Part shown: positions 1,849-29,367 of the stretch, piece after piece
How the letters are laid out: each line of letters starts with the position of its first letter
Position numbering within the stretch: the first letter of the stretch is position 1
Source of the DNA: Candidatus Iainarchaeum sp.
GTDB taxonomy: Archaea > Iainarchaeota > Iainarchaeia > Iainarchaeales > CSSED10-239
Direction: 5' to 3'
Length of the DNA: 32,000 nucleotides
Assembly (NCBI GenBank): GCA_028700115.1
Contig: JAQVTI010000011.1
Location: 1-32,000, forward strand
Position numbers and translations under genes: made by a program
The notes under the pieces: model-generated
What the model was told of the DNA's origin: nothing
The model's input: the letters and a program-made list of their open reading frames with translations, nothing else
Databases searched by the model: none

Positions 1849-4317
1849 ATGATAAAAATTGATTTAAATAATACTAATAAGCAAGAACTTTTAAAAGTTT
1901 TAGAAAAACAAATATCTTCTCCTTCAAGATATATTATATCCCCAATAGATATTTCTATTTTAAAAAAACATAGAATTGATGTTAAAACATTTGCAAAAAA
2001 ATTAAAAGAAGTAAAAGCAAATTATACTGTTTTAAAAGGTCTTGGTTTTAAAGCAAAAACATTAAAATCAGCAGGATTTATTTTAAATGATTTAAAACAA
2101 GTAGGATTTGATGCAACTAAATTAAGAGAGCTTGATTTTAATGCACAAGAATTATATACTGCAGGATATTTGGCAAAAGATTTAAGACAAGCGGGGTATA
2201 CTGCAAGAAGACTTAAAAAAGTTGGGGTTAATTTAAAAGATTTAAAACAAGCAGGATATTTAGCTAAAGAAATTAAAAATGCAGGATATTCTGCAAAGCA
2301 AATTTTAAGTGTAGGATTTACTATTAAAGATTTAAAAAAATCTGGTTTTACTGCTTCTCAATTAAAAAAGATAGGTCTTTCTGCAAAAGAATTATATAAT
2401 GGAACATATTCTTTAATAGAACTTAGAAAAGCAAAATATTCTATTATAAAATTAAAAGAAGCAGGATTTACAGATGCAGAACTTGGGATTGTAAAAAAAG
2501 TAAAAAAAGAAAAAACTGAAAAAAAAGTAAAAAAAGTAAAAAAAGAAAAAACTGAAAAAAAAGTAAAAAAAGTAAAAAAAGAAAAAACTGAAAAAAAAGT
2601 AAAAAAAGTAAAAAAAGAAAAAAAAGAAATTATTGTTAAAACAGATTCTAAAAATAAAAAATTATTTATAATTGAAATAAATAAAGAAAATTTAAAAAAA
2701 TATAAACCAATAGAATTAATTAAAGGAAAAGTTAATGCAGAATCTTTAAAAAAGAAAAACTTTTCTGCATCTGATTTAAAAAAATTAGATTTTTCTGCAA
2801 AAGATATTTATTTTTTAGGATATCTTGTATCTGATCTTAAAAAAGCTAATTTTTCTTTGAAAGATTTTAAAGAAGCAGGAGTTTCTATTAAAGAATTAAA
2901 AGAAATTGGATATCTTCCAATTGATTTAGTAAAATTATATGATACAAATAGTATTTTATATGGAGAATTTGACGCAAAAGATTTAAAAAATGCAAAATTT
3001 AATTCAAAAAAATTAAAAGAATATGCATATACTGCAAAACAATTACATGATGCAGGATATAATTTAAAAGATCTTTTAAAGGCAAATTATAAATTTAAAG
3101 ATATTCTTGCTTTAGGATATACAATTAAAGATTTAAGGAAGCATTATACTTTAAAAAAATTATGTAATCTTGGATATTGTTTACAAGATTTTAAAGAAAT
3201 ATTTACAATAAAAGAATTAATTGATGCAAATTTTACATTACAAGAATTAATTAATGCAGAATTTGATTTAAAAGAGCTTATTAATAATTTTAAAATTAAA
3301 GAATTTTATTTAATTAATTTTTCTGCAATTAAACTTTTTGAAAATGGTGTTTCTTTAGAAGAATTAAAAGAAGCAGGATACAATATAAAAGAATTAATTG
3401 CATTAGAACCTATACAAGAACCTTTAGAAGAAAAACAAAGTTATTCTTTAGAAGAATTAAAATATATGAAATATTCTATAAGTGAACTTTTAGAAATGGG
3501 GTATACTGTTTTAGATTTAAAAAATTCAGGATATTCTGCAAAAGAATTAAAAGTAGAAGGAGTTACTTGTAGAGAATTAATTGAAGTAGGATTTGATATA
3601 AGAGAACTTCATTTTTTAGGATGTACTTTAAAATATTTTATAGAATATGGATTAAATTTAATAGATTTAAGAAATTCTGGATTTAATGCTTTAGAATTAC
3701 ATTTAGAAGGATATTCTTTATATGATCTTAGAATGGCTGGGTTTTCTGCAAAAGAACTTCTTCACATAGGATATACTGCAAAACAATACCATTCTGTAGG
3801 ATATACTGCAAAAGAACTTTATGAAATTGGATTTAGTATTTCTAGTTTAAGATTTGCAGGATATAAAGCAAAAGAATTAACAGGAATTGGAATTTCTATA
3901 AATGATTTTTATTTAGCAGGATATTTAGCTAAAGAAATGGCACAAGCAGGATATAAACCAATAGACCTTAAAGGAAATTATTCTGCAAAAGAGTTAAAAC
4001 AAGCAGGATTTGATGTTGCATCTATGAAAAAAGCAGGATTTTCTGCAAAAGAGTTATATGATGTTGGGTTTTCTGCAAGACAACTTCATTATGGTGGATT
4101 TTCTGCAAAAGAACTTTATGAAGTTGGAGTAGGTATAAGAATGTTAAAAGTTATACATTATGCTGCAAAAGAATTAAAAGAAATTGGATTTACTGCCTTA
4201 CAATTAAAAAAAATTGGATATAACCTAGAACAATTAAAAGAAGCAGGATATTCTTTTACTGAACTTAAAGATGCAGGTTTTTCTTCAGAAAAGATTAACA
4301 GACTTCCTAATAAATAG
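1849..4317 (+). CDS. 822-aa decapeptide-repeat protein (consensus L-K-x-A-G-[FY]-S-A-K-[DE]), possibly a pentapeptide-like beta-helix; no signal peptide
   Basis: SD GAGGT lies 8 nt upstream of the ATG. Residues 62-211 form 15 repeats of exactly 10 aa with no indel. Residues 300-815 hold about 50 more. The two blocks are separated by a Lys-rich linker. Confidence 0.9.
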   Translation: MIKIDLNNTNKQELLKVLEKQISSPSRYIISPIDISILKKHRIDVKTFAKKLKEVKANYTVLKGLGFKAKTLKSAGFILNDLKQVGFDATKLRELDFNAQELYTAGYLAKDLRQAGYTARRLKKVGVNLKDLKQAGYLAKEIKNAGYSAKQILSVGFTIKDLKKSGFTASQLKKIGLSAKELYNGTYSLIELRKAKYSIIKLKEAGFTDAELGIVKKVKKEKTEKKVKKVKKEKTEKKVKKVKKEKTEKKVKKVKKEKKEIIVKTDSKNKKLFIIEINKENLKKYKPIELIKGKVNAESLKKKNFSASDLKKLDFSAKDIYFLGYLVSDLKKANFSLKDFKEAGVSIKELKEIGYLPIDLVKLYDTNSILYGEFDAKDLKNAKFNSKKLKEYAYTAKQLHDAGYNLKDLLKANYKFKDILALGYTIKDLRKHYTLKKLCNLGYCLQDFKEIFTIKELIDANFTLQELINAEFDLKELINNFKIKEFYLINFSAIKLFENGVSLEELKEAGYNIKELIALEPIQEPLEEKQSYSLEELKYMKYSISELLEMGYTVLDLKNSGYSAKELKVEGVTCRELIEVGFDIRELHFLGCTLKYFIEYGLNLIDLRNSGFNALELHLEGYSLYDLRMAGFSAKELLHIGYTAKQYHSVGYTAKELYEIGFSISSLRFAGYKAKELTGIGISINDFYLAGYLAKEMAQAGYKPIDLKGNYSAKELKQAGFDVASMKKAGFSAKELYDVGFSARQLHYGGFSAKELYEVGVGIRMLKVIHYAAKELKEIGFTALQLKKIGYNLEQLKEAGYSFTELKDAGFSSEKINRLPNK
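2491..2625 (+). repeat. perfect 36-bp tandem repeat (3 full copies plus 1 diverged partial) inside the repeat-protein gene
   Basis: The unit gtaaaaaaagtaaaaaaagaaaaaactgaaaaaaaa occurs at 2491, 2527 and 2563, with a partial copy from 2599. It encodes VKKVKKEKTEKK three times. Confidence 0.95.
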
Positions 4318-14304: not shown

Positions 14305-17300
14305 CTATTTTTTAAAATAAGATTCTTTTTTTTGTATAATATAAAAAGCACCAATAATTATAAATATATATAAAATTAACATCAAATTAGATTGTGGGCT
14401 TAAAGGTATATTAAAACCACTTGATTCACTTCCTGAATTTCCCCCTATATTTATATTCATAGGGTTTTGAGAAGTTGTACCTACAACTTTTCCATCTTCT
14501 CCTACTTGAAACATCATTCCGTCTTTAAAATCTGGATTAAATGGAATTAAATGTCCATTTTCTGTATACCAATTACCTGTGCTTGGATCATACCAAAAAG
14601 AACCATTTTTTCCTTGAGCAGAAAGTAAAGTTTCAAGTTCATCATTATATTGTAATCTTGGAACACCATCTTCTGCACTAAATTCAAAATTATGCTCTTT
14701 TCCATCTGCAGTTTTTATTATCATTCCATCTGGTGTTTCAATAATTTCATCAATTGCCTGATCAGTAATTATTTGTCCGGTTTCTTTATCAATTATTTTC
14801 ATCCTTTTTTCACATTCAGGAGGATCTCCTGTATAAAAAATAAATGTCTTTGTAGCTGTGTCGAAAATCTGGAAAGGACCAACATGTTCTAGTGCATCAT
14901 TCATTTCATCAGCTTTATTTTGAGCATCTGCACTATCTTTTTTACCTTTTACATCAAAATCTAATGCAAATTCTTCACAACCAGTTACCTCATTGTTATA
15001 ATTTACAACTTTTGTATCTAAATCTTCAATTTCAGATTGATGCATTGTATAAGTTTGTTCAACCCATAAAATATAACTATTTGTTTCTCCATTATATATC
15101 ATTTGTCCTCTTTCAAATTGAATAGCTATGTTTTGACCAACTCTTACATCTTGGTTATCAATTGGATACATTTTTGTAAATCTTTCTCCACCATAAACAG
15201 TAACTTTTGCAGCATTTCCTTTTGCTGATCTTCTAGGAACTCCTTCTGCTACAATCTCTATATTATTTTCAGATGTTTTTGGCATTATATCATATTGTGT
15301 AGTTGGGTTTGTGATATTTGTTGTTGTTAAAATTTTTGCAGAACCAAGATAATCTGTTAAAGAATTTCCTTGCATTGTAAGTCCTGTTTGTGATTCATAG
15401 TTTAGTTTAAAACAATCTAAAAATCCAACGTTTTCAATAGTTATATTTCCATAAGCATCCATTGTAAACAAAGGAACATTTGTGTCTGGAACTGGTATAT
15501 AACTTAGACTATGAGGAATTACTTTTGCAGGAATTCCTAAGTTAGTTGCAGTAAGTCTTACCCAGTCTTTGTGTTCTGAATCAATTATATTTTTAATAGT
15601 TCCATCTTCTGTTACAATTTCTATTTTTCCTTCATCTTTATCAATAACTAAAGTTTCATTTGTAGATGTATCTGTTAGATGTTCTACACCTTTGTCATTA
15701 TATGCACTTGCTCTACAAGTTGATTTTTCTCCAAGTTCAAAAAAATAAAGCATTCCTTTAACAGAAGCTGAAGTGTTTCCTATAGTTTCAAATCTAGATT
15801 GAACAATTGGGTTGTCTTTTATTTTTGTTTCTGCAAAATTTTCAACTTCTTTTGCAGCTTCACTTAAATTTTCTTTTAAAGTAGTTCCATCTGCCATGTT
15901 TGAAATATTTTTTTGAATTGCAGAAGCTCCGTTTGAAATTGCATCTCCTATTTTATTTTTAGGATCTTTTTCTATTCTTTCTTCTTCATTTTTAGAAACA
16001 AAAACATGTGTATAATAACCTTCTTCATCATCTACACAGTCTTGAACTTGTGGTGTGATTAATGTTTGAGGAATTAAATCTCCTAGAATAACTCCAAGAA
16101 TCATTCTGTGGCTTGGAGCAGAAATTGCATAATAAGCTAAATTACTTGTGATTGCAGAAACCATTCCTGCTCTGTAACTTTTTCCTGTCCATTTAGTTGT
16201 CCAACCAATAGGAACACCAATTAATTCAAGTTCATCTATTCTTTGGGAACATGTATCTCCATTATTTTTTGCATCAGTTAAAACTACTGTTTTATCATCA
16301 GTTTCTCCTGAGATTGATCCACCATAATCTGTATGATGAGAAAATGTAATTAAAGTTTTTCCTTCATCTTCTAGATTTTCTTCAGTTGTGTTTTCTAGTA
16401 AGTATGTAGGTACTGTAATTCCACCTGGAATACTATAAATTATTTGCATATCTTTAATAGGTTCTTGAGAAGAAACTTCTTCTATAGAAATATCTGTTTC
16501 TTCTAAATTTTCTTTTTGTGTTTCTAAGATCTTTTCTTTTAGAGCTGATTTTTCATAAGTTTGTTTTTCTAAAAGAGAAGAGTTTCCAAGTTTCACATAA
16601 CAATTATCATTACATCCGTAGTTTTCTGCATCTGTAAATAAAGCAACTTCATCAACTGTGCTTCTTCTAATATGTCCTTCTGTAATTTGTTTTATCCAAT
16701 CATCTACTGAATTTGTGAATTTAGAATCTACACTTTCAATTCCAAGTTTAGTCAAAGAAACCAAATAAAATAACATACTATTAAAATATTTTGAAAATAA
16801 ATCACCTTGATCAGAACCATCATTTACAAAGTAATCAATATATGCATCTTTGTAAATATCTCCATCTTCTCCGTGATTAATTAAAACTGATGTATATGTT
16901 TCTGGGATTTGATATGCACTATATTTACTTAGAGAATCTCCTATAAAAGGAAGAGATGCACCTGCTGTTTTCCATTCCCAATATGCCCAGTTTAGAGCAT
17001 ACGCATTTAGAGAATTTCCTAAAAGACTCATTGCTTGGTTTGTATGTTTCCCATTAACTGGAGCTTTCATTTGTTGGTTTATCCAGTTTATTCCTTTTCC
17101 AGAAACCCAGCCTTTATTGTTCATTACATCCATCATAGATGTATTTACTATACTTGCATCTTTAACCATTTTAGTTCCATCAGCAACATATGAATATGCA
17201 AGTTCAATTGGATCATATCCAAAATCTTTTGCATCTAATGGAGTTTCTTTTACTGGATACCATTTAAAATTTGCAAAACTTGGATCAACATCATCTAATT

Positions 17301-19296
17301 TAAAATCAGTTGCTTTTACTTGTTTCATTATTCCAGATTTATCTTGATATCCTATATAAATATTAGGGTTATTTGTATATTTGGAAAGATCTATTCTTTC
17401 TAAATATTCTCCCTTTGCCATATTAATTTCTTCTCTATAAACTGGTATTTTTTGTATTTTTCTAGTAACTCCATCAGAAAAAGTTACATCTACAGTTTCA
17501 GTTTTAACTGTTTTTGCACCCATTTCATACATACCTTTATCAGAATTATATTTAATTTCAAAAGCCTTATTTCCTCCACCAATATCTGTTATCTGTGAAG
17601 AGCTTGCTCCTGTTGTTGGTTGAACTTTGTTTGTCATAACAAGTTCTGTTTTTCCTGTAGTTGGATCTTTATAAAGTGTTTTTCTAGAAGTAATTATTGG
17701 ATTTTCATTTAAAGGTTTATCCCATTTAACAGCACTTTCTGTTAAATCATCAATTCTATTTGTTAAGTTTCTAACTTCTGTTGTTTGTTTCATTATAATA
17801 TCATAATCTGCACTTGAAAGATTTTTATAAATATCTCCTGCTTTAGAGTTTGGGTCTTCAATAATTTCTACTAATTTTTTTACAGCAGTATCATAATCTT
17901 TATTTTTTATTAAAGACTCTTGTATTGCTTGAGTCATTTTTAAATTATCTTGATATTTTTGTGCACTTTCAAATAAAACTCTTCTTTGTTGTTTTGTAAG
18001 TTTATCAAATTTTCCACCTTTTGAAAATTCTTTTGCAATTGTGTCTATATTTTTCTTTGAACTTAAAGCATTTGTATATGCTTTATATTCATCATATATA
18101 CCATATTGATCAACAACTTGTCTTATTTCTTTTTGAGTTGTTTTTAAATAACTTGTATAATTATCAATATTTTTTGAAGCATTTTTAAACTCAATTGATC
18201 TAGTTAAAGCCTTTAGAGGGTTGTCTCCTTCTGAAAGCATATTGTCAATAAATCCACCTTTTTTTGCATTTATCTTTTTAGAAATATCAAAACCTAATCT
18301 ATTTTTAGAAAAATTTCCAATATCCCCAAAAATCTTAGTTGCACCTTTCCATAAGAAAGGAGATGCTGAAGAAACAACTAAGTCTGCAGAGAAATATTGA
18401 TTAAACATTTTATCAAATAAAGAATAAACATTAATATAACAATTTTCACCTTGACAAGTAGTTTCCATACTTGCATTAAATGTTTGTGTTTTTATACTAT
18501 TTTCAATTGCATTTTCTAAAAGAACTTGAGATTTTTTCATTTCAAACTCAGTTGCATTTTCATCAAATTGAATACTTTTAATATATTCTAATTGTTCATA
18601 TGACATTTCAGAAAATATACCCATATCTTCACTAATTTCAAAATCTGCTTCTGGGTTTATTATATCTCCTGCTTCTTCTTTAATCTTATTAATACCTATC
18701 ATATCAAGCATATCTTTTCCAACAGATACAAATTCATCTTTAAAACCATTATTACCATTTTCTCTAAAAAGACCAACTTCTTCTAAATAACAAGGTTCAT
18801 TTTCATCTCCACTACATCTTCCAACTCTTAGAGTGTTTTCTAAATTTATACCATATGAAAAAGGGCCATAACATGCTTGACCTAAAAGTGCAGGCACTTC
18901 TAGAGGGTTAATTTCTTGATTTGGCATTTCTTGTTGCAGCACAACATCATTTGCCTTTGTGTCTTTATTTGTAAGTAATAAATCATTTTCTTCTAAAGTA
19001 TCTCTGTTTGTGTTTTCTTTTTGATCAGAACCAACTAAGTCTACTTTAAATCCAGAAACTAAAAGTTCATCCCATAATCTTTCTACACTTTCAGAATCTA
19101 GTTCTTGAGTAAAACACCCAGATCCAAAATCATCAATATTATTTATTTCTTCTAGATTAATAGAACAAGTTGAGTATAAAGTTTTATTTTCTTCTAATCT
19201 TGTTATATCTACATTAAATGCAAAAACTGAGTTTATAAACATTAAAAGAAAGAAAAAACTTATTAAATTAAAATATATTTTATTTTTATCAAGCAT
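14305..19296 (-). CDS. 1663-aa secreted giant surface protein with an N-terminal signal peptide and a C-terminal TM anchor; no recognisable domain
   Basis: The signal peptide is IYFNLISFFFLLMFINSVFA. The C-terminus is ..GGNSGSESSGFNIPLSPQSNLMLILYIFIIIGAFYIIQKKESYFKK. The sequence is non-repetitive, with many cysteines that often occur in close pairs. Confidence 0.9.
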   Translation of the reverse strand: MLDKNKIYFNLISFFFLLMFINSVFAFNVDITRLEENKTLYSTCSINLEEINNIDDFGSGCFTQELDSESVERLWDELLVSGFKVDLVGSDQKENTNRDTLEENDLLLTNKDTKANDVVLQQEMPNQEINPLEVPALLGQACYGPFSYGINLENTLRVGRCSGDENEPCYLEEVGLFRENGNNGFKDEFVSVGKDMLDMIGINKIKEEAGDIINPEADFEISEDMGIFSEMSYEQLEYIKSIQFDENATEFEMKKSQVLLENAIENSIKTQTFNASMETTCQGENCYINVYSLFDKMFNQYFSADLVVSSASPFLWKGATKIFGDIGNFSKNRLGFDISKKINAKKGGFIDNMLSEGDNPLKALTRSIEFKNASKNIDNYTSYLKTTQKEIRQVVDQYGIYDEYKAYTNALSSKKNIDTIAKEFSKGGKFDKLTKQQRRVLFESAQKYQDNLKMTQAIQESLIKNKDYDTAVKKLVEIIEDPNSKAGDIYKNLSSADYDIIMKQTTEVRNLTNRIDDLTESAVKWDKPLNENPIITSRKTLYKDPTTGKTELVMTNKVQPTTGASSSQITDIGGGNKAFEIKYNSDKGMYEMGAKTVKTETVDVTFSDGVTRKIQKIPVYREEINMAKGEYLERIDLSKYTNNPNIYIGYQDKSGIMKQVKATDFKLDDVDPSFANFKWYPVKETPLDAKDFGYDPIELAYSYVADGTKMVKDASIVNTSMMDVMNNKGWVSGKGINWINQQMKAPVNGKHTNQAMSLLGNSLNAYALNWAYWEWKTAGASLPFIGDSLSKYSAYQIPETYTSVLINHGEDGDIYKDAYIDYFVNDGSDQGDLFSKYFNSMLFYLVSLTKLGIESVDSKFTNSVDDWIKQITEGHIRRSTVDEVALFTDAENYGCNDNCYVKLGNSSLLEKQTYEKSALKEKILETQKENLEETDISIEEVSSQEPIKDMQIIYSIPGGITVPTYLLENTTEENLEDEGKTLITFSHHTDYGGSISGETDDKTVVLTDAKNNGDTCSQRIDELELIGVPIGWTTKWTGKSYRAGMVSAITSNLAYYAISAPSHRMILGVILGDLIPQTLITPQVQDCVDDEEGYYTHVFVSKNEEERIEKDPKNKIGDAISNGASAIQKNISNMADGTTLKENLSEAAKEVENFAETKIKDNPIVQSRFETIGNTSASVKGMLYFFELGEKSTCRASAYNDKGVEHLTDTSTNETLVIDKDEGKIEIVTEDGTIKNIIDSEHKDWVRLTATNLGIPAKVIPHSLSYIPVPDTNVPLFTMDAYGNITIENVGFLDCFKLNYESQTGLTMQGNSLTDYLGSAKILTTTNITNPTTQYDIMPKTSENNIEIVAEGVPRRSAKGNAAKVTVYGGERFTKMYPIDNQDVRVGQNIAIQFERGQMIYNGETNSYILWVEQTYTMHQSEIEDLDTKVVNYNNEVTGCEEFALDFDVKGKKDSADAQNKADEMNDALEHVGPFQIFDTATKTFIFYTGDPPECEKRMKIIDKETGQIITDQAIDEIIETPDGMIIKTADGKEHNFEFSAEDGVPRLQYNDELETLLSAQGKNGSFWYDPSTGNWYTENGHLIPFNPDFKDGMMFQVGEDGKVVGTTSQNPMNINIGGNSGSESSGFNIPLSPQSNLMLILYIFIIIGAFYIIQKKESYFKK

Positions 19297-19316: not shown

Positions 19317-19808
19317 TCATACAAAAATTATAAACAATATCATAGCGATTAATTTTGGAAAAATTATATTTATTATAATTAATATTAGACAAGCAATTGA
19401 AGTTGAAAATAATAATGGTAAAAAATTAATTTCTTTTTTAGACTTATTAAACTTATCATAAAATAAACTTATAATAAATGCAAATACTAGTAAAATACCT
19501 GCAATTAATATATTTGTTATAATTAATCTAAACAAATGTAATATTATAAAAAACAAACCTTCAAAGAAAGTATATTGAAAATCAATTGAAATTGTTGGAA
19601 TAAAATAAATTCCTAGAATTATTACTAATGAAACTAAATAAATAGTTACAAACATAGAAATTAAAAAACTTTTTTTCTTATTTATTTTTTTAAATAAAAA
19701 TTTAAATAAGTATACAAAAAGAATTATTGGTAAAGAAATTAATACACTAACTCCATATAGTTTTATAAAAAACCAAATATAATTAAATATTGTAGAAAGT
19801 ATATTCAT
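19317..19808 (-). CDS. 163-aa polytopic membrane protein (about 5 TM), immediately upstream of the giant gene
   Basis: Almost entirely hydrophobic helices. A 20-nt gap separates it from the giant ORF on the same strand. Confidence 0.7.
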   Translation of the reverse strand: MNILSTIFNYIWFFIKLYGVSVLISLPIILFVYLFKFLFKKINKKKSFLISMFVTIYLVSLVIILGIYFIPTISIDFQYTFFEGLFFIILHLFRLIITNILIAGILLVFAFIISLFYDKFNKSKKEINFLPLLFSTSIACLILIIINIIFPKLIAMILFIIFV

Positions 19809-19948: not shown

Positions 19949-20701
19949 ATGGAATTTATGAATAAATCTGATATTATTAGAAGAGAGAGAAGACACTATA
20001 GAAGATATGTAAATGGAAATATAGTGTATGAACCAGCTCCTGTTGATGGGCATAAAGAAAGTACTTATGATAATAAGTTTAAAAATAATTATAAAATGAA
20101 AAAAGAAGAAGGAAGAATTACAAGTCTTGCTGAATTAGCTGATGAAAATATAAAAACAAAGTTTCCTAAAAAAGATCAAGTTATTGAAAAAACTTTACAT
20201 GAATTATCAGATATGATAAATCCTGATTCTTCAGAAATTGCAGATGCTTTATATAATCAATTTAAGAATACTGCATTAAATATTAAACAACAAGAAATAA
20301 AAAAAGCAATTGATAATAATAAACATTTTAGAGCAAGTAGTGATCAAAATAAAAATTTAGAAATAAAAGATATAAAAGCAGTTGTTGAAGATGTTTATGT
20401 TCAAGTTGAAAAAGAAGCAATCAAGAATAAGTCTATAGAAAAGGATAAAAGTGATGTAAAAGAAGCAATCACAAAAGAAATTTCTAAAGATAAAAATAAA
20501 TCTTTTAAAAAAGAAGAACCAAAAGAAGAAAAAACTTCTATAAGATCTAGAAAAAAATCTATAGAAAAAGAAGAAGTTAAAGAAATTAAACCTTCTAAGA
20601 AAAAAGAAAAAGTTTCTGGAAATGATCTTTTTGGTGATAATGATTTAGATTTAGATGATAATGATTTAGATTCTGATGATGATTTAGGACTTAAATTTTA
20701 A
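19949..20701 (+). CDS. 250-aa K/E-rich, probably disordered protein with a strongly acidic C-terminal tail
   Basis: It has an Arg-rich N-terminus (IIRRERRHYRRY), long KE-rich tracts and the tail ..GNDLFGDNDLDLDDNDLDSDDDLGLKF. Confidence 0.6.
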   Translation: MEFMNKSDIIRRERRHYRRYVNGNIVYEPAPVDGHKESTYDNKFKNNYKMKKEEGRITSLAELADENIKTKFPKKDQVIEKTLHELSDMINPDSSEIADALYNQFKNTALNIKQQEIKKAIDNNKHFRASSDQNKNLEIKDIKAVVEDVYVQVEKEAIKNKSIEKDKSDVKEAITKEISKDKNKSFKKEEPKEEKTSIRSRKKSIEKEEVKEIKPSKKKEKVSGNDLFGDNDLDLDDNDLDSDDDLGLKF

Positions 20702-20720: not shown

Positions 20721-21506
20721 TTAATCATTATAAATTTTACAATTTAATTTTTCTAATTCTTTTTGAGCTATGCTTTTATTAGCTGGCCAAATTGCAAAAG
20801 TTGAAGTTATTTCTAATTCAGTTTCATCTCTACCTTCTTTTGCAGTAAAAGTTAAAGGAACAGAAGAAGCATGTATATCATTTGCTTTTGAAATAACTTC
20901 TCTTATATCATTATAATTTAAAGGATCGCATAAATAATATTTTGAAAGACCCATATTTATATCATTTAATTTATAGGTTTTATTAGAATCATTTTCTGAG
21001 TTTTCAAAATCAGTTATTTTTAACATAATATATTCAAATTTTTGATCATTTGTATTATATAAATAAAAAGTAAAATCATAACTAGGAAGAGGCATCATAA
21101 CTGATTTTATTGTGTGAAATAAATTATATTTTGCAATATCATCAGGATTTGACACATCTGGATTTGGAATATCTTCATCTATTGGATTAAACATATAATT
21201 TAAATCACCAGAACCTATATGTTTATCAGGATAAAAATCTGTTTTTACTGCTGTCATTAGATAATCAATTTCTTCACTTTCAAATATGTTTTTATTATAA
21301 TCTAAAGGAATTTCTGAATAAAATATAGTTTTTAAAGCAGAATTTGAATATTCTTTAAAATATAAATTATTTATTGCAAGATCTACTCTATCTCCATAGC
21401 TTGCTGAATATTTAAAAAGCATTACAGTTAGAACTATAATTATTGTTAAGAAAAATAAAGCATCTGTAATTGCAGCTTGTGCTTTTTGTCTTTTTAATTT
21501 ATTCAT
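20721..21506 (-). CDS. pilin-like protein with class III signal peptide (261 aa)
   Basis: The N-terminus is MNKLKRQKAQAAITDALFFLTIIIVLTVMLF. It is the last gene of the pilus-like operon. Confidence 0.75.
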   Translation of the reverse strand: MNKLKRQKAQAAITDALFFLTIIIVLTVMLFKYSASYGDRVDLAINNLYFKEYSNSALKTIFYSEIPLDYNKNIFESEEIDYLMTAVKTDFYPDKHIGSGDLNYMFNPIDEDIPNPDVSNPDDIAKYNLFHTIKSVMMPLPSYDFTFYLYNTNDQKFEYIMLKITDFENSENDSNKTYKLNDINMGLSKYYLCDPLNYNDIREVISKANDIHASSVPLTFTAKEGRDETELEITSTFAIWPANKSIAQKELEKLNCKIYND

Positions 21507-21529
21507 ATTTTTTCAAAATTTATTTTTAT

Positions 21530-22087
21530 TTATTCCCATACAGCAACATATAGCCTTACAGGAACTGCATGATATTCTATTTGTAAATTAATAGGGTAAA
21601 CATAAACTAAGACTTTATGTTTTTCATCTTGGGTTTTTACTTTTGTTTTAAATTTATCTAAATTTTTAGAAGTATTTGGACAGTAAAATATATTTTGTTC
21701 TGAATTTGGATCATATATATTTTCATCTAGAACAATTATTTGTGTATTATCTTCATCATTTGTTAATAGAAATTCTAAATCTACCTCATTGTAATTATCT
21801 AAATCTTGGGGTAGGTCTATTAAAAAGGCAGTCCAGTTTCTGTTTGTGTTTACTTTATTACATATGTTTGTAAAATGATTATAATCTATTATAACTGGTT
21901 CTGATCTTAAAGTCATAGAAATATCTATTGCATCTTGATGTAAATCAAAGTTTTGAGTTTCTGTTTTATAATTATTATATGTGCTTAAAAATACTGAAAA
22001 AAAAATTAATAGACCTATGAATATAGGTATTAGACTTGGAAGATCATCCCCTATTGCACCAATATAACCTTTTTGTTTTTTTTTCAT
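21530..22087 (-). CDS. pilin-like protein with class III signal peptide (about 185 aa)
   Basis: The start is preferred at MKKKQKGYIGAIGDDLPSLIPIFIGLLIFF (ATG 22087), which overlaps the upstream gene's end by 9 nt. Confidence 0.7.
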   Translation of the reverse strand: MKKKQKGYIGAIGDDLPSLIPIFIGLLIFFSVFLSTYNNYKTETQNFDLHQDAIDISMTLRSEPVIIDYNHFTNICNKVNTNRNWTAFLIDLPQDLDNYNEVDLEFLLTNDEDNTQIIVLDENIYDPNSEQNIFYCPNTSKNLDKFKTKVKTQDEKHKVLVYVYPINLQIEYHAVPVRLYVAVWE

Positions 22088-22094
22088 ATTTAAT

Positions 22095-22763
22095 CTAACC
22101 ATTATTAGGTTCATTATATTCATTTATACAAATATCTACAGACTTACAACTTACATCTTCAAACATAGAATCATCGCAAACTATCTTTTTACATGTAAGA
22201 ATACCATTTTGTTTTGCACAAGGCAATATATAATAATTGTCTTGTCCTTCTATTTTATTTTTGATTAGAATAAGAGTAGAATCATTACTTTTTACTCTTA
22301 ATGTATCATATATTCCATAATCTTGTTTAGAACTCCAATTACTACTATTATCATATGGATGCTCTGCATTATAAAAGGTAAAATCTCCATTAAAATCTAT
22401 ATCATATGCACCATATATTTTATCTTGTTTTTGATTTAAAATAGATATGACTAGTTTTTTATTATAATTATTTTCTGGATTTTCTTTTTCAAGTTCCATA
22501 ATATTTAGGACATATGCTTTGTTAAATGTAGTAGTTGAGCTTTGTCCACTTTTAATTCTTGTTGGGATATCTATATATTTGATAGAGCAATAACTCTCAC
22601 TATCTGTAATTAATTTAATATCTCTACCTATATTATAAGCTAATTCATAACTTTGTCTAGTTTGTAGATTTGAATTTACTGTATTCATAAAAAAAAGAAT
22701 AATTGCAGCAATTGCTGTTGCAAATAAAAGCATATTAAGTTTTGATAAAGCAAATTCAAACAT
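22095..22763 (-). CDS. pilin-like protein lacking a charged leader (222 aa, Cys-rich C-terminus)
   Basis: MFEFALSKLNMLLFATAIAAIILFF begins directly with the hydrophobic segment. Seven Cys are present, six of them in the last 40 residues. Confidence 0.65.
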   Translation of the reverse strand: MFEFALSKLNMLLFATAIAAIILFFMNTVNSNLQTRQSYELAYNIGRDIKLITDSESYCSIKYIDIPTRIKSGQSSTTTFNKAYVLNIMELEKENPENNYNKKLVISILNQKQDKIYGAYDIDFNGDFTFYNAEHPYDNSSNWSSKQDYGIYDTLRVKSNDSTLILIKNKIEGQDNYYILPCAKQNGILTCKKIVCDDSMFEDVSCKSVDICINEYNEPNNG

Positions 22764-22778
22764 TTTTTAATCACTAAT

Positions 22779-23393
22779 TTATTTTTTTCTTAAAAGACAA
22801 ATTTGTATATTACTTGAATTTGTATTTGTCTTTTTAAACATTCTATATTTTCCAGGAGGAAGACCTATTGGAGATCCATCAGATGAATCTTTTGGATTCC
22901 ATACTTGCCATAAATCTTCAGATATTTCATCTTCAGATAAGCATTCATCAGGAGTTGTTGCAAAATTTATAGTTGTTGGAAGATGTGTGCAGATTGGTTC
23001 AATTGGATATTTATAATCAAAAGTATCTTTATCTTCATAAGTATATTCTAATAATAAACAACTATCTCCCCCACCACAATAAGTTCCGCATTTTCCTTTA
23101 TCATCATATGCATTAAGTCTTACATATTCATATCTTTGATTAAAACACGCTTTTGTATCTAAAGATATATTTCTAATTACTAGATCTGAGCCTAAGACAA
23201 CATCTCTTAGAGAAGAATTAAAATTACTAAGTTCTTCTTTTTTATCTCCAAGGCATGTGCTTTGTTGTAAATTTTTAAGAGCATAAGTTCCTGCTAGAAT
23301 AACAAAACCCATAATTATGATTGCAACTAGAAGTTCAAAAGGAGCACCTATTTGTGCTTTTTGTTTATTATATTTTTTTTTAACAAATATCAT
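22779..23393 (-). CDS. Cys-rich pilin-like protein with class III signal peptide (204 aa)
   Basis: The N-terminus is MIFVKKKYNKQKAQIGAPFELLVAIIIMGFVIL. There are eight Cys, including GKCGTYCGGGDSC. Confidence 0.75.
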   Translation of the reverse strand: MIFVKKKYNKQKAQIGAPFELLVAIIIMGFVILAGTYALKNLQQSTCLGDKKEELSNFNSSLRDVVLGSDLVIRNISLDTKACFNQRYEYVRLNAYDDKGKCGTYCGGGDSCLLLEYTYEDKDTFDYKYPIEPICTHLPTTINFATTPDECLSEDEISEDLWQVWNPKDSSDGSPIGLPPGKYRMFKKTNTNSSNIQICLLRKK

Positions 23394-23429
23394 ATTATAA
23401 AGATAGTATAAAGTATTAAAAAAACTTTT

Positions 23430-23481
23430 GTTTTTATTTAGAAAAACAAGAAAAAGAAAATAGTTTAAAATAAACTATTTT
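23430..23481 (-). terminator. AT-rich hairpin plus T-rich tract after the mini-pilin gene
   Basis: aaatagttt (23458-23466) pairs with aaactattt (23472-23480). On the minus strand it is followed by TTTTCTTTTTCTTGTTTTTC. It lies in the 87-nt gap before the next pilin-like gene. Confidence 0.35.
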
Positions 23482-23678
23482 TATTCAGAAGTTACTGTTT
23501 GGTTTGGAAGATTTGCTTTTTGAGAAGACGCTTTTACTGATTTATTAAACATAGGCTTAACTACTGCAATTAGAATAATTGCAATAATTGCAACAATTAT
23601 TATCATAAATATAGAATTTGACTCACCTTGAGCTTTTTCTTCATTTATGAATTTAATAAATTCTTTTTTTAATCTCAT
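23481..23678 (-). CDS. 65-aa mini-pilin (class III signal peptide plus a short tail)
   Basis: MRLKKEFIKFINEEKAQGESNSIFMIIIVAIIAIILIAVVKPMF..; the predicted mature part is only about 49 aa. Confidence 0.7.
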   Translation of the reverse strand: MRLKKEFIKFINEEKAQGESNSIFMIIIVAIIAIILIAVVKPMFNKSVKASSQKANLPNQTVTSE

Positions 23679-23707
23679 ATCTTCTCAAAAACCATTTTTA
23701 ATTAAAT

Positions 23708-24238
23708 CTATATTTTCTTAGGGAAAATTACACAAACTGTGGCATCTGTTTCTCCAAACTCTTCATATGTGTCTAATTCTACTAAATCATAATCATTAAT
23801 AATTTTAATTAGAGAGTTAGAACTATCTGCACATAAAATACCAAATTTAAATTTTGTATTTTCAGAACTTTTCATTTTTAAAGTCTTTCCAGTTGTATAT
23901 GTATCACTAGAACCAATTGCAAAGAAATTATCATTTCCTGCTATGTCAAAATATACTTGATTAGAATCAATTCCAGTTCCTGCAACTATTGAAGATGTTG
24001 AAACAAATTCAGTGTTTTTTGAAGAAACTTTTACTTCGTCTGTATAAGCTAAATTCCCATAATTAGAAACTTGTGTTTTTAGAGTTGTATTAATTGAATC
24101 AGTTACATCTCCACCAATATTTATGTTTTTTGTAATCATTGGAAGAAGTACTCCTAAAATTGCAAGAGCAACAACAGCTGCAATTAATAATTGAAATGTA
24201 GAAAAGGCTTGTCCTTTTTCTTTTAATTTATTAAACAT
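23708..24238 (-). CDS. candidate major pilin with class III signal peptide (176 aa)
   Basis: The N-terminus is MFNKLKEKGQAFSTFQLLIAAVVALAILGVLL. It has the best SD in the locus (AGGAGG, 7 nt upstream) and follows a 110-nt intergenic gap. Confidence 0.8.
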   Translation of the reverse strand: MFNKLKEKGQAFSTFQLLIAAVVALAILGVLLPMITKNINIGGDVTDSINTTLKTQVSNYGNLAYTDEVKVSSKNTEFVSTSSIVAGTGIDSNQVYFDIAGNDNFFAIGSSDTYTTGKTLKMKSSENTKFKFGILCADSSNSLIKIINDYDLVELDTYEEFGETDATVCVIFPKKI

Positions 24239-24245
24239 TTTTTTT

Positions 24246-24251
24246 CCTCCT
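24246..24251 (-). promoter_or_regulatory. Shine-Dalgarno site (AGGAGG) of the candidate major pilin
   Basis: Plus-strand cctcct at 24246-24251, 7 nt from the ATG at 24238. Confidence 0.6.
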
Positions 24252-24348
24252 AATAAAAAATTAAATAACTTTTTTTATTAAATATAATATATAACTAATA
24301 TTAAAGAAAATCAAAACTTATTTAAATATTTTTATTTTCTTCATTTTC

Positions 24349-24846
24349 TTAAATTATTAGATAAATGTAATTTATTGTGTAAGTAATTATACTTGGAATA
24401 ACTAACATAAATATGATGTCTCTTAATTTAATATGTGTATCTATTTCATTATATTCTATTATGTTTGAATTATATTTACTTTTAGAATATTTTATTTTTT
24501 TATTTAAAACTAATAAGTTCCAAAAAGTTCCAAATAAAACCGCATTAATTACCCAGACTAAGATAATTTTTGTAATTGGATTAACTATTTTATTTATTAA
24601 ATTCCAAGATATTAAAGTTATAAAAATACTTAAAAAACTAGAAAATAACATATAAAAAAACAATTTAAAATTTTTATTTGCAAAAAGATAGAGTCCTTTT
24701 GTAAAAAACATACTTATTATAAAAAATATTGTCATTAAAGCTATAATTATACCTATAACTAAAAGAATAATTGTACCAAACAAATAACCACAAACTAGAA
24801 TAATTATTGCAAATAAAAAATATTTTAATGTGTTTTTTAAATTCAT
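24349..24846 (-). CDS. 165-aa polytopic membrane protein within the pilus-like operon
   Basis: It has 4-5 hydrophobic helices and starts 2 nt after the upstream pilin-like gene's stop. No GxGD or Asp motifs are present, so it is not a prepilin peptidase. Confidence 0.65.
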   Translation of the reverse strand: MNLKNTLKYFLFAIIILVCGYLFGTIILLVIGIIIALMTIFFIISMFFTKGLYLFANKNFKLFFYMLFSSFLSIFITLISWNLINKIVNPITKIILVWVINAVLFGTFWNLLVLNKKIKYSKSKYNSNIIEYNEIDTHIKLRDIIFMLVIPSIITYTINYIYLII

Positions 24847-24848
24847 AT

Positions 24849-25379
24849 TTAATTGCCTTCCTTATATATTTCATCAGGAGCATTTTTGTTTAGAAATAAA
24901 ACAATAAATTTTTCACAATCCTCTGTGTTTTTTTCTAATAAATTATAAATACTAGAAGGTTCATCTGAATTTGAGATATTACAATAAATAGTTACATCCA
25001 TATCTAAGTTTCTTTCAGTAATTTCATAAATTAATTCATTTGATTCTGCAATAGGTTCAATTCCTGGACCATTATCTATACCTATACATCCTTTTTCAAT
25101 ACCAGTTATTCCAGAAATCCATTCTTTTGAAATTGTGCCCTTTAATTTTAAATCTTCAATAATATATTTACTTTGTGTACTTATTCCAGGAGCTTTACTT
25201 GCAGAAATAATTCCTTCTTCTAATTTTTGTTGACTAATAATAATTGCTTTATTATTAATATTTCTAACCATTACTAAAATAATAGAAAGAATAGCAACAG
25301 TTATTACAAAAGCAATTAAAAGTCTAAAAGATTCTTCAGCTTGAGCTTTTTGTTTTTTTGTAAATAAATTAAAATCCAT
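24849..25379 (-). CDS. pilin-like protein with class III signal peptide (176 aa)
   Basis: The N-terminus is MDFNLFTKKQKAQAEESFRLLIAFVITVAILSIILV. An 11-nt gap follows the platform gene. Confidence 0.75.
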   Translation of the reverse strand: MDFNLFTKKQKAQAEESFRLLIAFVITVAILSIILVMVRNINNKAIIISQQKLEEGIISASKAPGISTQSKYIIEDLKLKGTISKEWISGITGIEKGCIGIDNGPGIEPIAESNELIYEITERNLDMDVTIYCNISNSDEPSSIYNLLEKNTEDCEKFIVLFLNKNAPDEIYKEGN

Positions 25380-25390
25380 ATTAATTAACC

Positions 25391-27631
25391 TTAAAATATC
25401 ATATTTGCAAGAATTGTTGTAATTATAAATAATATTGTTGCAATTGGTAAAGTTCTTGCAATATTTAATTTAGCAAGAGTAATGTTGTCTTGTTCTATCA
25501 TAGTTGTAAAAAATGTTATAATGATTACAACTTGAATAACATAGATTGCAACAATTATTAAAAAGGCTGTAGGAGAAGCAAGTTGAGAAATTACAGTAGT
25601 ATCAATTGAACCCATACTACTAATTGAACTTGCATTAACATTTACACCAATTGCACTAACCCCATCTTTTACACCTTCAATTGCAGAAGTCATATCTTCC
25701 ATTGTATTACTGTTTGCAATTGAATAAAGTGTAGAAATTACAATTTTTTGAAGAGCTGTAGTTATTCCTAAAACTATAGGGGCAATAAATTTAGACATGC
25801 TTTTTAGAGTTGTTGTTACAGAACTAATTAAGTCTCTTAACATTTTAGAAACTTCATCAGTGTTTCTTAACTGCAGAGAGTATGACATTAATGTTTTTGC
25901 AGCAACTGAAACTCCTAACTGAACAGAATCTACTAAAAGTCTCATAGCTGAATTAATAAGATTAGAAGGATTATTTTTAAGAGCACCATAACTTGGATCA
26001 AACAAAGCTGAATTTAAATTAAGTCCTAAAACTCTTATGTTATCAATTGCTTTTCCAAATATGTTTTTAGAAATTAAAGCTTTTGGTAAAAAGTTTTTTG
26101 TATGACTTAAAGCATCTTCAATTGGTTTGTTTTCACCAAGTCTACTTGCAATTACATATAGTGCATCTTTAAATTCGTCTTCCATTTTTTCAGTTTCTAA
26201 TTGTATTTCTCTTTTATATTTACTTTGAGAATATAAGACTATAGAAATTAATAAACTAATTAAGATTAACATTCCATAAATTATATAATGAGGAGTAATA
26301 TCATTTTCTGATCTTGCCCAAAACTCTTGTTCTGAAGCACATTTAAATTCAGAATCTGCTGCTTTTTCAACTTGTTCTGCTTTTGTACAATAAAAATCTG
26401 CTTCACTTATTTCTTGACTATCTGTAATATAACCAGATTGAATAAGTATACTTTTTTTAGTTTGACCAAACTCAGATTGTAAAAATACACTTCCTGCAAT
26501 TAAAATTACACTTACTATAATTATTAAAATACCTATATGTAAATGAGCTTTTCCTATTTTTATTGTGTTTTTAGGAGGAAGCTTTGGGTAATTGTCTGGT
26601 ATTTTAGGAGGTCTGTAAGTAGAAGGTTTGTTTCTTATTATCTTTTTTGCATAAAACAAACAACCTATAGGAATAATTATATTATATATTAAAATTAAAT
26701 AAATTGGTTTTGCAAGAGCAGAACCTGAAAAAGCAGAACCAACTGGTAGAACAATAATTAAAAGTAAAGGAAGTAATACCCCTAAATAAAAAATACCCAT
26801 TGCTGGTTGTGCTAAACTTCTTGCATAATCTTCTAGTTTTTCTTTTATGGATTTTAAAGTCTCAGACATTGTTTGATCTAAGATTTGATATCTTTTTGCC
26901 TCTGAGTTTTCTATAACAGAAGACCTTATTTTCATTAAAGCTTTTTTAAACTCAGTAGAAACTTCTCCCCATTTATAGGCAAGTTCATCTATTCCTTCAG
27001 AAACACTGTTTTTTATACCTACTTTAACTTCCCATAATAATTTTTTTAAATCATCTGCAATTTTTCCATGTCCATGATTTGAAGCAAACTCAATTGCTTT
27101 TTCTAAATTTGGAACTAATTTCATAGACATTATCATATATCCTAAAATTTCTGGAACAAAAGTTAATGCTAAAATTTTTTCAGATTGTACTTTTTTTAAA
27201 GGATAATTTTGAAAATTTATATAAATTATTATAAAAATAAATATTGGAAGAATAAAAGTAATTATAATAGGCATTATAATTATATCAAATAAAGAAAATA
27301 ATAAATCATAACCAAATAAATATATTAAATAACTAATAAGACCTGTAAGAAAAATACCAAAAAAAAGAATAAATTTTAAAGTAGCAGAATATTCTTTTCC
27401 AGATAAATCCCAATTAAGAAAATCAACTGCATTTTTTAAATCTGGTCTAAAAGAAGAATTATTACCAAGACTAGGAAATTTATTATATATTTTTTTACAA
27501 AAAATAACATAATAATTTTGTTTTTTTCTTTCTAATTTATTTATATTTTTAGAAAAATCTCTACTTTCTATAGATATTGAACTATATATTTTTCCAGGAC
27601 TTGTTTTTGGGGGTCTTATTATATCAGACAT
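25391..27631 (-). CDS. FlaJ/TadC/PilC-like polytopic membrane platform protein (746 aa)
   Basis: Two soluble helical modules (..PNLEKAIEFASNHGHGKIADDLKKLLWEVKVGIKNSVSEGIDELA.. and ..FKDALYVIASRLGENKPIEDALSHTKNF..IDNIRVLGLNLNSAL..) are each flanked by TM clusters. That is the duplicated T2SSF-type arrangement. It is the first gene of the pilin operon. Confidence 0.65.
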   Translation of the reverse strand: MSDIIRPPKTSPGKIYSSISIESRDFSKNINKLERKKQNYYVIFCKKIYNKFPSLGNNSSFRPDLKNAVDFLNWDLSGKEYSATLKFILFFGIFLTGLISYLIYLFGYDLLFSLFDIIIMPIIITFILPIFIFIIIYINFQNYPLKKVQSEKILALTFVPEILGYMIMSMKLVPNLEKAIEFASNHGHGKIADDLKKLLWEVKVGIKNSVSEGIDELAYKWGEVSTEFKKALMKIRSSVIENSEAKRYQILDQTMSETLKSIKEKLEDYARSLAQPAMGIFYLGVLLPLLLIIVLPVGSAFSGSALAKPIYLILIYNIIIPIGCLFYAKKIIRNKPSTYRPPKIPDNYPKLPPKNTIKIGKAHLHIGILIIIVSVILIAGSVFLQSEFGQTKKSILIQSGYITDSQEISEADFYCTKAEQVEKAADSEFKCASEQEFWARSENDITPHYIIYGMLILISLLISIVLYSQSKYKREIQLETEKMEDEFKDALYVIASRLGENKPIEDALSHTKNFLPKALISKNIFGKAIDNIRVLGLNLNSALFDPSYGALKNNPSNLINSAMRLLVDSVQLGVSVAAKTLMSYSLQLRNTDEVSKMLRDLISSVTTTLKSMSKFIAPIVLGITTALQKIVISTLYSIANSNTMEDMTSAIEGVKDGVSAIGVNVNASSISSMGSIDTTVISQLASPTAFLIIVAIYVIQVVIIITFFTTMIEQDNITLAKLNIARTLPIATILFIITTILANMIF

Positions 27632-27706: not shown

Positions 27707-27824
27707 TTTATATTTTAAATAAAAATTAATATATATTATATTTATTAAGTAAAAAGAAATATTTAAATATATGTTTATTTACTTTAAAATTATAAAACTA
27801 AATAAAATTAGAAGGTGTGAAAAT

Positions 27825-28010
27825 ATGATTAAAATAAAACAAGATAGAAATGCATGTATTGGATGTGGGGCATGTGTTTCAGTATGCCCAGAAAATTGGG
27901 AATTTAAAGGAAATAAACCAATTCCAAAAAAAACAGAAGTAAAAGAAATTGGCTGTAATAGACAAGCTGCAGATGTTTGCCCTGTAAGATGTATTGAAAT
28001 TGAAGAGTGA
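27825..28010 (+). CDS. small 4Fe-4S ferredoxin
   Basis: CIGCGACVSVCP (CxxCxxCxxxCP) plus a distal CPVRC. SD AGGTG lies upstream of ATG 27825. Confidence 0.85.
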   Translation: MIKIKQDRNACIGCGACVSVCPENWEFKGNKPIPKKTEVKEIGCNRQAADVCPVRCIEIEE

Positions 28011-28618: not shown

Positions 28619-29367
28619 ATGGATAAAAAATTAAACTTTGGTATAGCAGGATTTTCAGATTTATCATACAAAATACCAAAATCTTCTAAAAATCCTACTG
28701 CAGATTCTATTTCTTTAATTTCAGAGATAGGGCTTTCTGCTTTAGAAATTGAATTTGTAAGACAAGTTTATTTAAAAAATACTTCTGAAGAAAAAATTAC
28801 ACAAATTAAAGAAAATGCGATTCATTAAATGTTGGACAAAAAATAAGTGCAAAAAATATAGTTGTACATATTGGTTATTTTTTAAAACAAGAACCTAAAA
28901 AAGTTTTAGAACATATTTCTGAAAATATACAAGATATATATAATAATTATAAAGGAGATACCCTTTTAGGAATTGAACTTACTGGCAAAAAATCTCAAGT
29001 TGGGTCTTTAGATGAACTTTTTTATTTTTATAATAAATTTCCTAAATTTGTATTACCTGTAATTGATTTTGCACATCAACATGCAAGAGAAAATGGTTAT
29101 TTTAATAATAAAAAAAATATATTAGATTTTTTTGAAAAATTAGATAGTTATCCTGAATTAAAAAAAAATTTACATATGCATATTTCTGGTATAAATTATA
29201 CTGAAAAAGGTGAAATAAATCATTTACCTTTTAGAAAAAGTGATTTTCCATATAAATATATTTTGAAAGAATTAAAAGATAGAAATTATAAAGGAACTAT
29301 TATTTGTGAATCCCCAGAAACAGTATCTGATTGTTTATTTATAAAAAATATATATAATAAATTATAA
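28619..29367 (+). pseudogene. disrupted endonuclease IV-like (xylose-isomerase-like TIM barrel, AP endonuclease family 2) gene
   Basis: The N-terminal fragment (28619-28828, ..GLSALEIEFVRQ..IKENAIH-TAA) and the C-terminal fragment lie in different frames. The C-terminal frame is open from 28810 and has no start codon before 29176. It reads ..AKNIVVHIGY..LGIELTG..IDFAHQHA..LHMHISG..IICESP. About 30 residues expected between the fragments are missing. Confidence 0.55.

Follow-up and report, generated by a model that had tools for sequence, protein, structure and literature searches.

Can a row of pilin-like genes beside a membrane platform gene, with neither an assembly ATPase nor a prepilin peptidase in the vicinity, encode a filament machine, and where would the rest of such a machine be? 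This question is raised by an operon in a stretch of 32,000 nucleotides (nt) from Candidatus Iainarchaeum sp. (assembly GCA_028700115.1, contig JAQVTI010000011.1, positions 1 to 32,000), in the following called the window. The operon (20721-27631) consists of nine co-directional open reading frames (ORFs) on the minus strand, separated in order by 11, 2, 110, 29, 87, 15, about -9 and 23 nt. This is the arrangement that an earlier interpretation, made from the letters of the window (the sequence-only reading), had described. The operon encodes a polytopic platform, six proteins that carry a class III signal, a pilin-like protein that lacks this signal and a small polytopic protein (Table 1). 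To judge from sequence and gene order, the nine genes would encode the membrane half and the subunits of a filament machine of the type IV pilus kind, conserved throughout the Iainarchaeota; we put the probability of this at roughly three in four. The locus is a real, conserved and uncharacterised type IV pilus-like operon. It is not a new type of machine or mechanism.

The most closely related proteins come from 'Candidatus ainarchaeum sp.' and from Diapherotrites/Iainarchaeota metagenome-assembled genomes (MAGs), which confirms the earlier assignment to a DPANN-like genome. The GC content of the window is about 22%. Related loci and ATPase proteins that were compared with the window are labelled with L- and P-numbers, respectively. 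A search of the available literature library found no paper on this Iainarchaeota locus.

The platform protein

The first gene of the operon encodes a protein of 746 amino acids (aa) (MDD3976206.1, locus tag PHN22_03545), in which the sequence-only reading had recognised the layout of a FlaJ/TadC-type platform. The match of the window protein to the Pfam family T2SSF is weak (residues 166-296, E=0.0019); at 18.6 bits it lies below the gathering cutoff of 25.2 bits. However, 23 of the 28 aligned family members match T2SSF individually, the best of them with E=2.3e-6, and several homologues carry the NCBI/PGAP name 'type II secretion system F family protein'. T2SSF is detectable by sequence solely in the first of two cytoplasmic modules.

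Nine transmembrane (TM) segments are predicted from hydropathy. An AlphaFold (AF2) model computed from 28 sequences is all-helical, with a predicted local distance difference test score (pLDDT) of 77.9 and a predicted template modelling score (pTM) of 0.69. Hydropathy and model place two soluble helical modules, predicted to be cytoplasmic, at about 141-276 and 471-612. A further TM segment (366-384) is predicted within an insert of about 115 aa (331-447). Conservation in the platform is highest in the two cytoplasmic modules, with identities of 83% and 78% inside the window's clade, which comprises 44 protein clusters of 58-87% identity, and of 62% and 57% to other Iainarchaeota. On sequence and synteny we accept that the platform belongs to the T2SSF superfamily, and we infer a two-repeat architecture for it.

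Six families with a conserved predicted prepilin cleavage site

Among the 48 ORFs of 50 aa or more in the window, six have a [KR]-[GA]-[QY] motif with a strongly hydrophobic segment behind it in their first 35 residues, and all six belong to the operon. In 100 shuffles of the window the mean number of such motifs was 0.06 and the maximum 1. Orthologues of each small operon gene were drawn from about 100 related loci and their N-termini were compared. Each pilin family has an N-terminal signature of its own, which is retained over 28-51 orthologues whose overall identity goes down to about 23%. What is kept is the predicted cleavage site and the hydrophobic helix from +1 to +20; in their globular parts the proteins have diverged to 23-30% identity. 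Five of the six predicted prepilins have Q at +1.

The signatures are as follows (the arrow marks the predicted cleavage site). The 176-aa family encoded at 24849 reads [KRS]-[GA]↓QAFxx(F/Y)(R/K)LLI, or more loosely [KRS]-[GA]↓Q..(F/Y)(R/K/N)LLI, in 28 orthologues. For the second 176-aa family (23708), [KR]-G↓QA(F/Y)S(V/T)F(K/Q)LLIAAVVA, the most conserved N-terminus of the set, was obtained from 51 orthologues. The 65-aa family shows [KR]-A↓Q(S/G)EW(N/S)S(V/I)Y...KPM (41 orthologues), the 204-aa family [KR]-[GA]↓QE(S/E/A)APFELL(V/I)AVI(I/V)MxFV (50 orthologues) and the 261-aa family [KR]-[GA]↓Q(A/S)(A/S)(I/V)TDA(L/M)(Y/F)F (47 orthologues). In the 197-aa family, [KR]-G↓(F/Y)(I/L)G(P/A)IGDDLPSLIP is present in all but one of 47 rows; the lone exception, from L007, is a mis-assigned match that shows the N-terminus of the neighbouring 222-aa type.

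The sequence-only reading had counted seven pilin-like proteins. Six of them do carry the signal, and the site is conserved in their orthologues. The seventh, the 222-aa protein, belongs to a family that never does: its 42 orthologues start with M-x-x-F-x-LSK(L/I/M)N(L/M)L(I/L), and none has K or R at -2. In the window protein one TM segment is predicted. Since the basic residue at -2 is always missing, this protein is probably not processed.

Could the six N-termini be ordinary uncleaved signal anchors on otherwise unrelated, membrane-anchored surface proteins? No Pfam pilin family was matched and there is no peptidase at the locus, as such an explanation would have it. However, a conserved [KR]-[GA]↓[QFY] site keeps a constant spacing to the helix in six families whose globular parts have diverged as far as stated above, the motif is exclusive to the six operon ORFs within the window, and across the class the pilin families are strictly linked to the T2SSE/T2SSF pair. 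The conservation of the cleavage site in orthologues thus argues that these are not ordinary signal anchors, and we consider this explanation highly improbable. The two points on which the sequence-only reading had hinged, a T2SSF-like platform and a K-[AG]-Q site kept in orthologues, are both what we find.

Among the six families, the 176-aa protein encoded at 23708-24238 is the candidate major pilin. Its gene is directly preceded by the largest intergenic gap of the operon (110 nt). Q10, C136 and C169 are invariant; in a wider alignment both cysteines remain invariant and Q10 is kept in at least 90%. The family has 209 representative clusters, all of about 165-200 aa, and no Pfam or PDB match by sequence. 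The 204-aa gene heads four contiguous genes of conserved order (204, 222, 197 and 261 aa). No recurrent Pfam match was found among 59 orthologues of the other pilin families, those of the 24849 176-aa family and the 204-aa family included; a single one of the orthologues scanned had a weak match to Flp_Fap (E=0.0045). PF04021 was not matched at E<=1 by the window proteins, nor at E<=0.1 and E<=0.01 by 43 and 59 family members, respectively. Because no Pfam family or solved structure matches, the globular parts constitute undescribed families, in line with the earlier remark that they resemble nothing known.

The ATPase gene was separated from the platform gene in one clade

That the window contains neither an ATPase nor a GxGD peptidase had been stated before. 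This is borne out by Pfam, with which every ORF of at least 80 aa and some shorter ORFs were scanned: neither a T2SSE ATPase nor an A24 peptidase was found in the 32-kb window, and a motif scan agreed for the peptidase. That a missing ATPase would be a feature of the system is contradicted by the related loci. A GTDB scan with an ATPase alignment returned 350 relatives, of which the best 80 species-representative Iainarchaeota loci were judged. In 67 of these 80 a platform gene lies at most 1.5 kb downstream of the T2SSE ATPase gene. Among the remaining 13, one has its platform gene 4.2 kb downstream, seven have none despite 1-10 kb of downstream sequence, and five are too short to judge.

L004, a 45%-identical locus on a 1.19-Mb contig, illustrates the unsplit arrangement. 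The gene of a 764-aa T2SSE ATPase stops 6 nt ahead of the platform gene, and behind the latter the identical pilin families follow in identical order. The order ATPase, platform, pilins was also found in L109, L110 and many others, and L111 is a further case of an ATPase adjoining a platform. The partner ATPase of about 760 aa is of the archaeal GspE/FlaI/CpaF type (2OAP, E=6e-31; FlaI, E=1e-22; CpaF, E=2e-20) and is extended at its N-terminus by about 330 aa. A length of 1260-1290 aa is found in many pilus ATPases of Iainarchaeota, which contain an intein with a homing-endonuclease domain (PF14528, PF14890); P0150, P0151, P0155, P0172, P0178, P0179, P0182, P0189, P0197 and P0255 are among them.

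Wherever a locus of the window's clade was examined (L002, L006, L007, L089-L091), a block of ferredoxin, AP (apurinic/apyrimidinic) endonuclease and F420 ligase genes, with no ATPase, stands ahead of the platform gene. In the window the immediate upstream neighbour is the ferredoxin gene (4Fe-4S; 27771-28010, opposite strand), the divergent ferredoxin of the sequence-only reading. Since the examined loci share this block, the clade has inherited the cut between ATPase and platform gene. Adjacency in 67 of 80 loci, from which only the window's clade differs, further means that the absence of the ATPase is a lineage-specific rearrangement and not a property of the machine. We thus show that the ATPase gene was ancestrally located immediately upstream of the platform gene and was separated from it by a rearrangement in the window's lineage.

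Whether the window's clade still has a partner ATPase was approached with homologue searches using queries from L004 and L075, and with the GTDB scan and a JGI metagenome scan. In two ATPase searches there was no window-clade ATPase among the matches listed (best 120); absence among 120 matches is uninformative. Within the clade the cytoplasmic modules are strongly conserved, which suggests the continued presence of a partner ATPase, with the caveat that these modules are also the best conserved ones across the whole platform family and not in the clade alone.

Some ATPases, which form a clade of their own, are 'orphans' in that no platform gene lies downstream of them (L053, L054, L059, L066, L070, L075, L082, L108 and others). 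These retain the ancestral upstream EpsH-like gene and, where the locus reaches, a giant gene for 2800-2950 aa, and are followed by unrelated genes. The ATPase gene of L108, from a sibling 'Ca. ainarchaeum' MAG (GCA_028691435.1), has a GC content at third codon positions (GC3) of 0.084, similar to the 0.065-0.10 of the window. We do not claim the orphans as partners of the window's clade: L108 is a different MAG by its accession and forms a singleton cluster, and neighbour-joining (NJ) trees of platforms and ATPases are too incongruent to pair the two clades. In these trees the window-clade platforms do not stand beside the platforms that accompany the ATPases nearest to the orphans.

If the cognate ATPase was lost after the rearrangement, the operon could be a decaying or repurposed remnant from which no filament is built any longer. 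The searches that listed no ATPase of the clade would fit, and so would the neighbouring AP-endonuclease gene, which is broken in the window. Yet absence among 120 matches carries no information, none of the nine ORFs is disrupted in the window or in relatives of 58-87% identity, an intact operon accompanies 44 protein clusters of the clade, the cleavage motifs are kept, and the cytoplasmic modules are under clear constraint. We therefore regard a remnant as very unlikely.

As to the peptidase, a crude motif test detected no GxGD-type polytopic ORF in the window or near any of about 110 related loci. The enzyme would thus generally be encoded elsewhere in Iainarchaeota genomes. Peptidases of the PibD/FlaK type are often encoded away from archaeal pilus loci (PMC4858521).

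Proposed assembly of the filament

A type IV pilus-like machine could be put together from these parts as follows. The 746-aa platform in the membrane would offer its two cytoplasmic helical modules to a hexameric ATPase of the FlaI/GspE type. The six prepilins would enter the membrane and be cut after [KR]-[GA] by an A24-family peptidase, leaving Q (or Y/F) at +1 of a hydrophobic helix of about 20 residues. Acting via the platform, the ATPase would pull the mature subunits out of the membrane and polymerise them by helix packing. The likely main subunit would be the 176-aa protein (23708-24238) or the 65-aa short pilin. The four proteins of conserved gene order (204, 222, 197 and 261 aa) would probably make up a complex for priming or at the tip or base, with the 222-aa protein as an unprocessed anchor. 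ATPase and peptidase would both act in trans from genes elsewhere in the genome. The filament would most likely be an adhesion structure that works with giant surface proteins encoded in synteny.

Several results weigh against this proposal. No contig or genome was found on which a window-clade platform occurs together with an ATPase or a peptidase, contigs of 193 kb (NPIE01002285.1, assembly GCA_015657915.1) and 286 kb (JGI contig Ga0499518_000010) included. The second platform module alone has no T2SSF match by Pfam, and a comparison of module 1 with module 2 by hhalign gave no signal of an internal repeat, at an effective number of sequences (Neff) of only 1.9. Foldseek found no significant whole-chain match of the platform model in the PDB and a profile search against PDB sequences gave zero matches, so that the assignment has no significant structural counterpart among T2SSF proteins. 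The sole family-relevant Foldseek match was cytoplasmic domain I of OutF, of the GspF family (TM-score 0.61 over 111 columns, not significant). The pilin families match none of the Pfam archaeal pilin or archaellin families. The single-sequence model of the 176-aa protein (23708), in which a long N-terminal helix leads into seven strands, is unreliable (pLDDT 52.5) and does not confirm a pilin fold.

Giant proteins and the function of the filament

In many loci the operon is followed by giant genes homologous to the 1663-aa gene of the window (1500-1770 aa). Upstream of the ATPase gene, most loci, the unsplit ones among them, have a divergently oriented EpsH-like gene (archaeosortase-like, PF09721; about 180-220 aa); where the locus reaches beyond it, a second giant protein of 2800-2950 aa with an N-terminal signal anchor is encoded (L004 1-6470; L054, L059, L066, L069). 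The 1663-aa protein has no Pfam match. It has NIPLSPQSN ahead of its C-terminal TM segment, and the C-terminus of the L111 protein is similar (NLPSVPEKD and TM segment). This type of C-terminus could be an unrecognised sorting signal. The 2800-2950-aa giant has no obvious C-terminal sorting signal.

A role as a host- or cell-attachment filament, as the sequence-only reading had it, is plausible, the one line of evidence for it being the conserved synteny with the giant surface proteins. The same synteny could point to a short pseudopilus, that is, a piston or display device similar to a type II secretion system (T2SS) that exports or positions these giants. They flank the locus class-wide, the 1500-1770-aa type with a four-TM protein downstream and the 2800-2950-aa type with the EpsH-like gene upstream of the ATPase, and the several pilin-like genes of conserved order recall the layout of GspG-K. 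However, the giants have a Sec-type signal peptide or signal anchor of their own and thus need no dedicated exporter, we know of no T2SS-like secretion function in archaea, and co-function cannot be told from co-regulation by synteny alone. We consider a pseudopilus unlikely.

The cognate ATPase might also have been lost rather than moved. The platform and the pilins would then use a non-cognate motor or build, together with the giant proteins, a static pilin assembly anchored in the membrane. A milder version would be that the island as a whole (archaeosortase-like gene, two giants, ATPase, platform and six pilins) is a dedicated attachment organelle of the Iainarchaeota. Taken together, we hold these two versions for rather improbable; loss of the ATPase, if true, would leave a type IV filament module that has no motor of its own.

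Table 1. Features of the pilus-like operon and of the genes next to it. Strand is relative to the window; arrows mark predicted cleavage sites.
Feature	Coordinates	Strand	Size and properties
Membrane platform, T2SSF/FlaJ/TadC type	25391..27631	-	746 aa; Pfam T2SSF, orthologue synteny
Prepilin-like protein 1	24849..25379	-	176 aa; KKQKA↓QAEESFRLLIAF
Polytopic membrane protein	24349..24846	-	165 aa; four or more TM segments; inside operon
Prepilin, candidate major pilin	23708..24238	-	176 aa; KEKG↓QAFSTFQLLIAAVVALAIL
Short prepilin	23481..23678	-	65 aa, mature about 48 aa; NEEKA↓QGESNSIFMIII...VKPMF
Prepilin-like protein, eight Cys	22779..23393	-	204 aa; KQKA↓QIGAPFELLVAIIIMGFV
Bitopic pilin-like protein	22095..22763	-	222 aa; N-terminal helix MFEFALSKLNMLLF; no basic leader or [KR]-[GA] site
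Prepilin-like protein	21530..22123	-	197 aa (185 aa from MKKKQKG start); KKQKG↓YIGAIGDDLPSLIPIF
Prepilin-like protein, last operon gene	20721..21506	-	261 aa; KRQKA↓QAAITDALFFL
Lys/Glu-rich protein	19949..20701	+	250 aa; between pilin operon and giant-protein genes
Four-TM membrane protein	19317..19808	-	163 aa; syntenic with operon
Giant surface protein	14305..19296	-	1663 aa; N-terminal signal peptide, C-terminal TM anchor

Comparison with known systems

The EppA-dependent (Epd) pili of Methanococcus are the closest characterised analogues. In Methanococcus maripaludis, too, a pilin gene cluster occurs with a FlaI/FlaJ-type pair and many components (PMC4858521). Q at +1, present here in five of six proteins, and a very short pilin (65 aa here, similar in size to EpdE) are further likenesses. 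Epd features of this kind are reported to have been described by Szabo (2007) and by Ng (2011). Unlike in the Epd system, the proteins of our operon match neither PF04021 (class III signal/DUF361, QxSxExxxL) nor other pilin families, the crude motif test found no EppA-like peptidase in about 110 loci, the platform is much larger, and the partner ATPase has its long N-terminal extension.

For the PilA pili of Haloferax volcanii and their PilB3/PilC3 module, too, the genes of one machine are spread over separate loci, with the products working in trans (PMC4858521), as they would here. The partition differs: in Haloferax ATPase and TadC are together and the pilins apart, whereas here TadC is with the pilins and the ATPase is apart. 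In the main survey of archaeal type IV pili, ATPase and TadC are repeatedly treated as a joint module or operon (PMC4858521).

The bacterial Tad/Flp pilus resembles the system in that its ATPase CpaF is related to the partner ATPase and in the short, Flp-sized pilin; one pilin orthologue matches Flp_Fap. This single match to the Flp pilin family (PF04964) among 59 orthologues is weak, and the ATPase is nearer to archaeal GspE and FlaI than to CpaF. One large platform stands in place of the TadB and TadC pair, a secretin and other Tad accessory genes are missing, and cleavage is predicted at [KR]-[GA]↓Q instead of G↓xxxxEY.

Finally, the archaellum uses the same ATPase and platform superfamilies and subunits with class III signals. 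The partner ATPase in related loci is FlaI-like, and some sources name it FlaI, so that a motility locus might be considered. However, FlaB archaellin, FlaH, FlaF/G and FlaC/D/E were not matched in the window proteins (Pfam, NCBIfam), in 59 pilin orthologues or in the Pfam tables of related loci, and FlaX was not found here either. All seven archaellum components occur in every archaellated archaeon (PMC4858521). The operon is almost certainly not an archaellum locus.

In DPANN archaea, 'dark matter' islands of type IV pili with an ATPase ('FliI'), TadC and surface proteins have been described (Makarova, Wolf and Koonin 2019, PMC6393860, Fig. 2A), in which proteins with signal peptides and undetectable similarity were read as divergent pilins (PMC6393860). 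The concept is the same as ours and is given there as a general prediction only. Beyond PMC6393860, we add the six pilin families found class-wide with their cleavage motifs, the fixed order of the genes, and the finding that one clade has lost the adjacency of the ATPase.

Other genes of the locus

Only the window's clade has the 165-aa polytopic protein in its operon. This protein has the same position in L002, L006, L007 and L089, is absent from L004 and other loci, and has no Pfam or NCBIfam match. As a candidate for the peptidase it was rejected: it has no conserved Asp pair or GxGD motif and its gene is clade-specific. The position of the Lys/Glu-rich gene is occupied by an opposite-strand gene in L007 (247 aa), L006 (268 aa) and L004 (277 aa); the L004 protein (16340-17173) ends in a CxxC...CxxC zinc ribbon, which the window version lacks. 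Orthologues of the 163-aa protein (163-179 aa) were found at the same position in L002, L004, L006, L007 and L091.

In some members of the window's clade extra genes follow the first pilin-like genes and precede that of the candidate major pilin; this part of the operon is a variable insertion site. The insertions in L089 (13305-16310) and L092 (2720-5274) encode proteins of 366, 232, 107 and 277 aa, or two of 332 aa. In the rearranged locus of the L086/L111 lineage the four 'minor' pilin genes and a giant gene are located upstream of the ATPase-platform pair. This lineage has a low GC content like the window's clade (L086, 0.295) and an AT-biased ATPase (FYMINK 0.295-0.303).

Further upstream of the operon, the AP_endonuc_2 gene (xylose-isomerase-like TIM barrel; 28619-29367, plus strand) is split in the window into ORFs of 69 and 63 aa. 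It is intact (285-290 aa) at the equivalent position in L002 (8289-9146), L006, L007 and L089; the split is either a pseudogene or an assembly error. At 1849-4317 (plus strand) the window encodes an 822-aa protein that consists nearly entirely of decapeptide repeats (PF25296, E=4e-166, 11 stretches). Rfam and tRNA scans of the window gave no match. In GenBank, the locus contigs of L013, L018, L021 and P0312 are filed under MAGs of Candidatus Falkowbacteria, Chloroflexota/Chloroflexi and Bacteroidales, which is likely due to mis-binning.

Significance

To our knowledge no member of the Iainarchaeota has been cultivated, and how DPANN archaea attach to hosts or surfaces is largely unexplained. 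The finding that the ATPase/TadC module can be broken matters for genome-mining rules that are anchored on this pair. For the class as a whole, a surface-filament gene set is now defined which consists of one platform, six pilin families with a common predicted [KR]-[GA]↓Q processing site, one pilin-like protein that is probably unprocessed, and the syntenic giants. This gene set provides concrete targets for proteomics, cryo-electron tomography and structure prediction.

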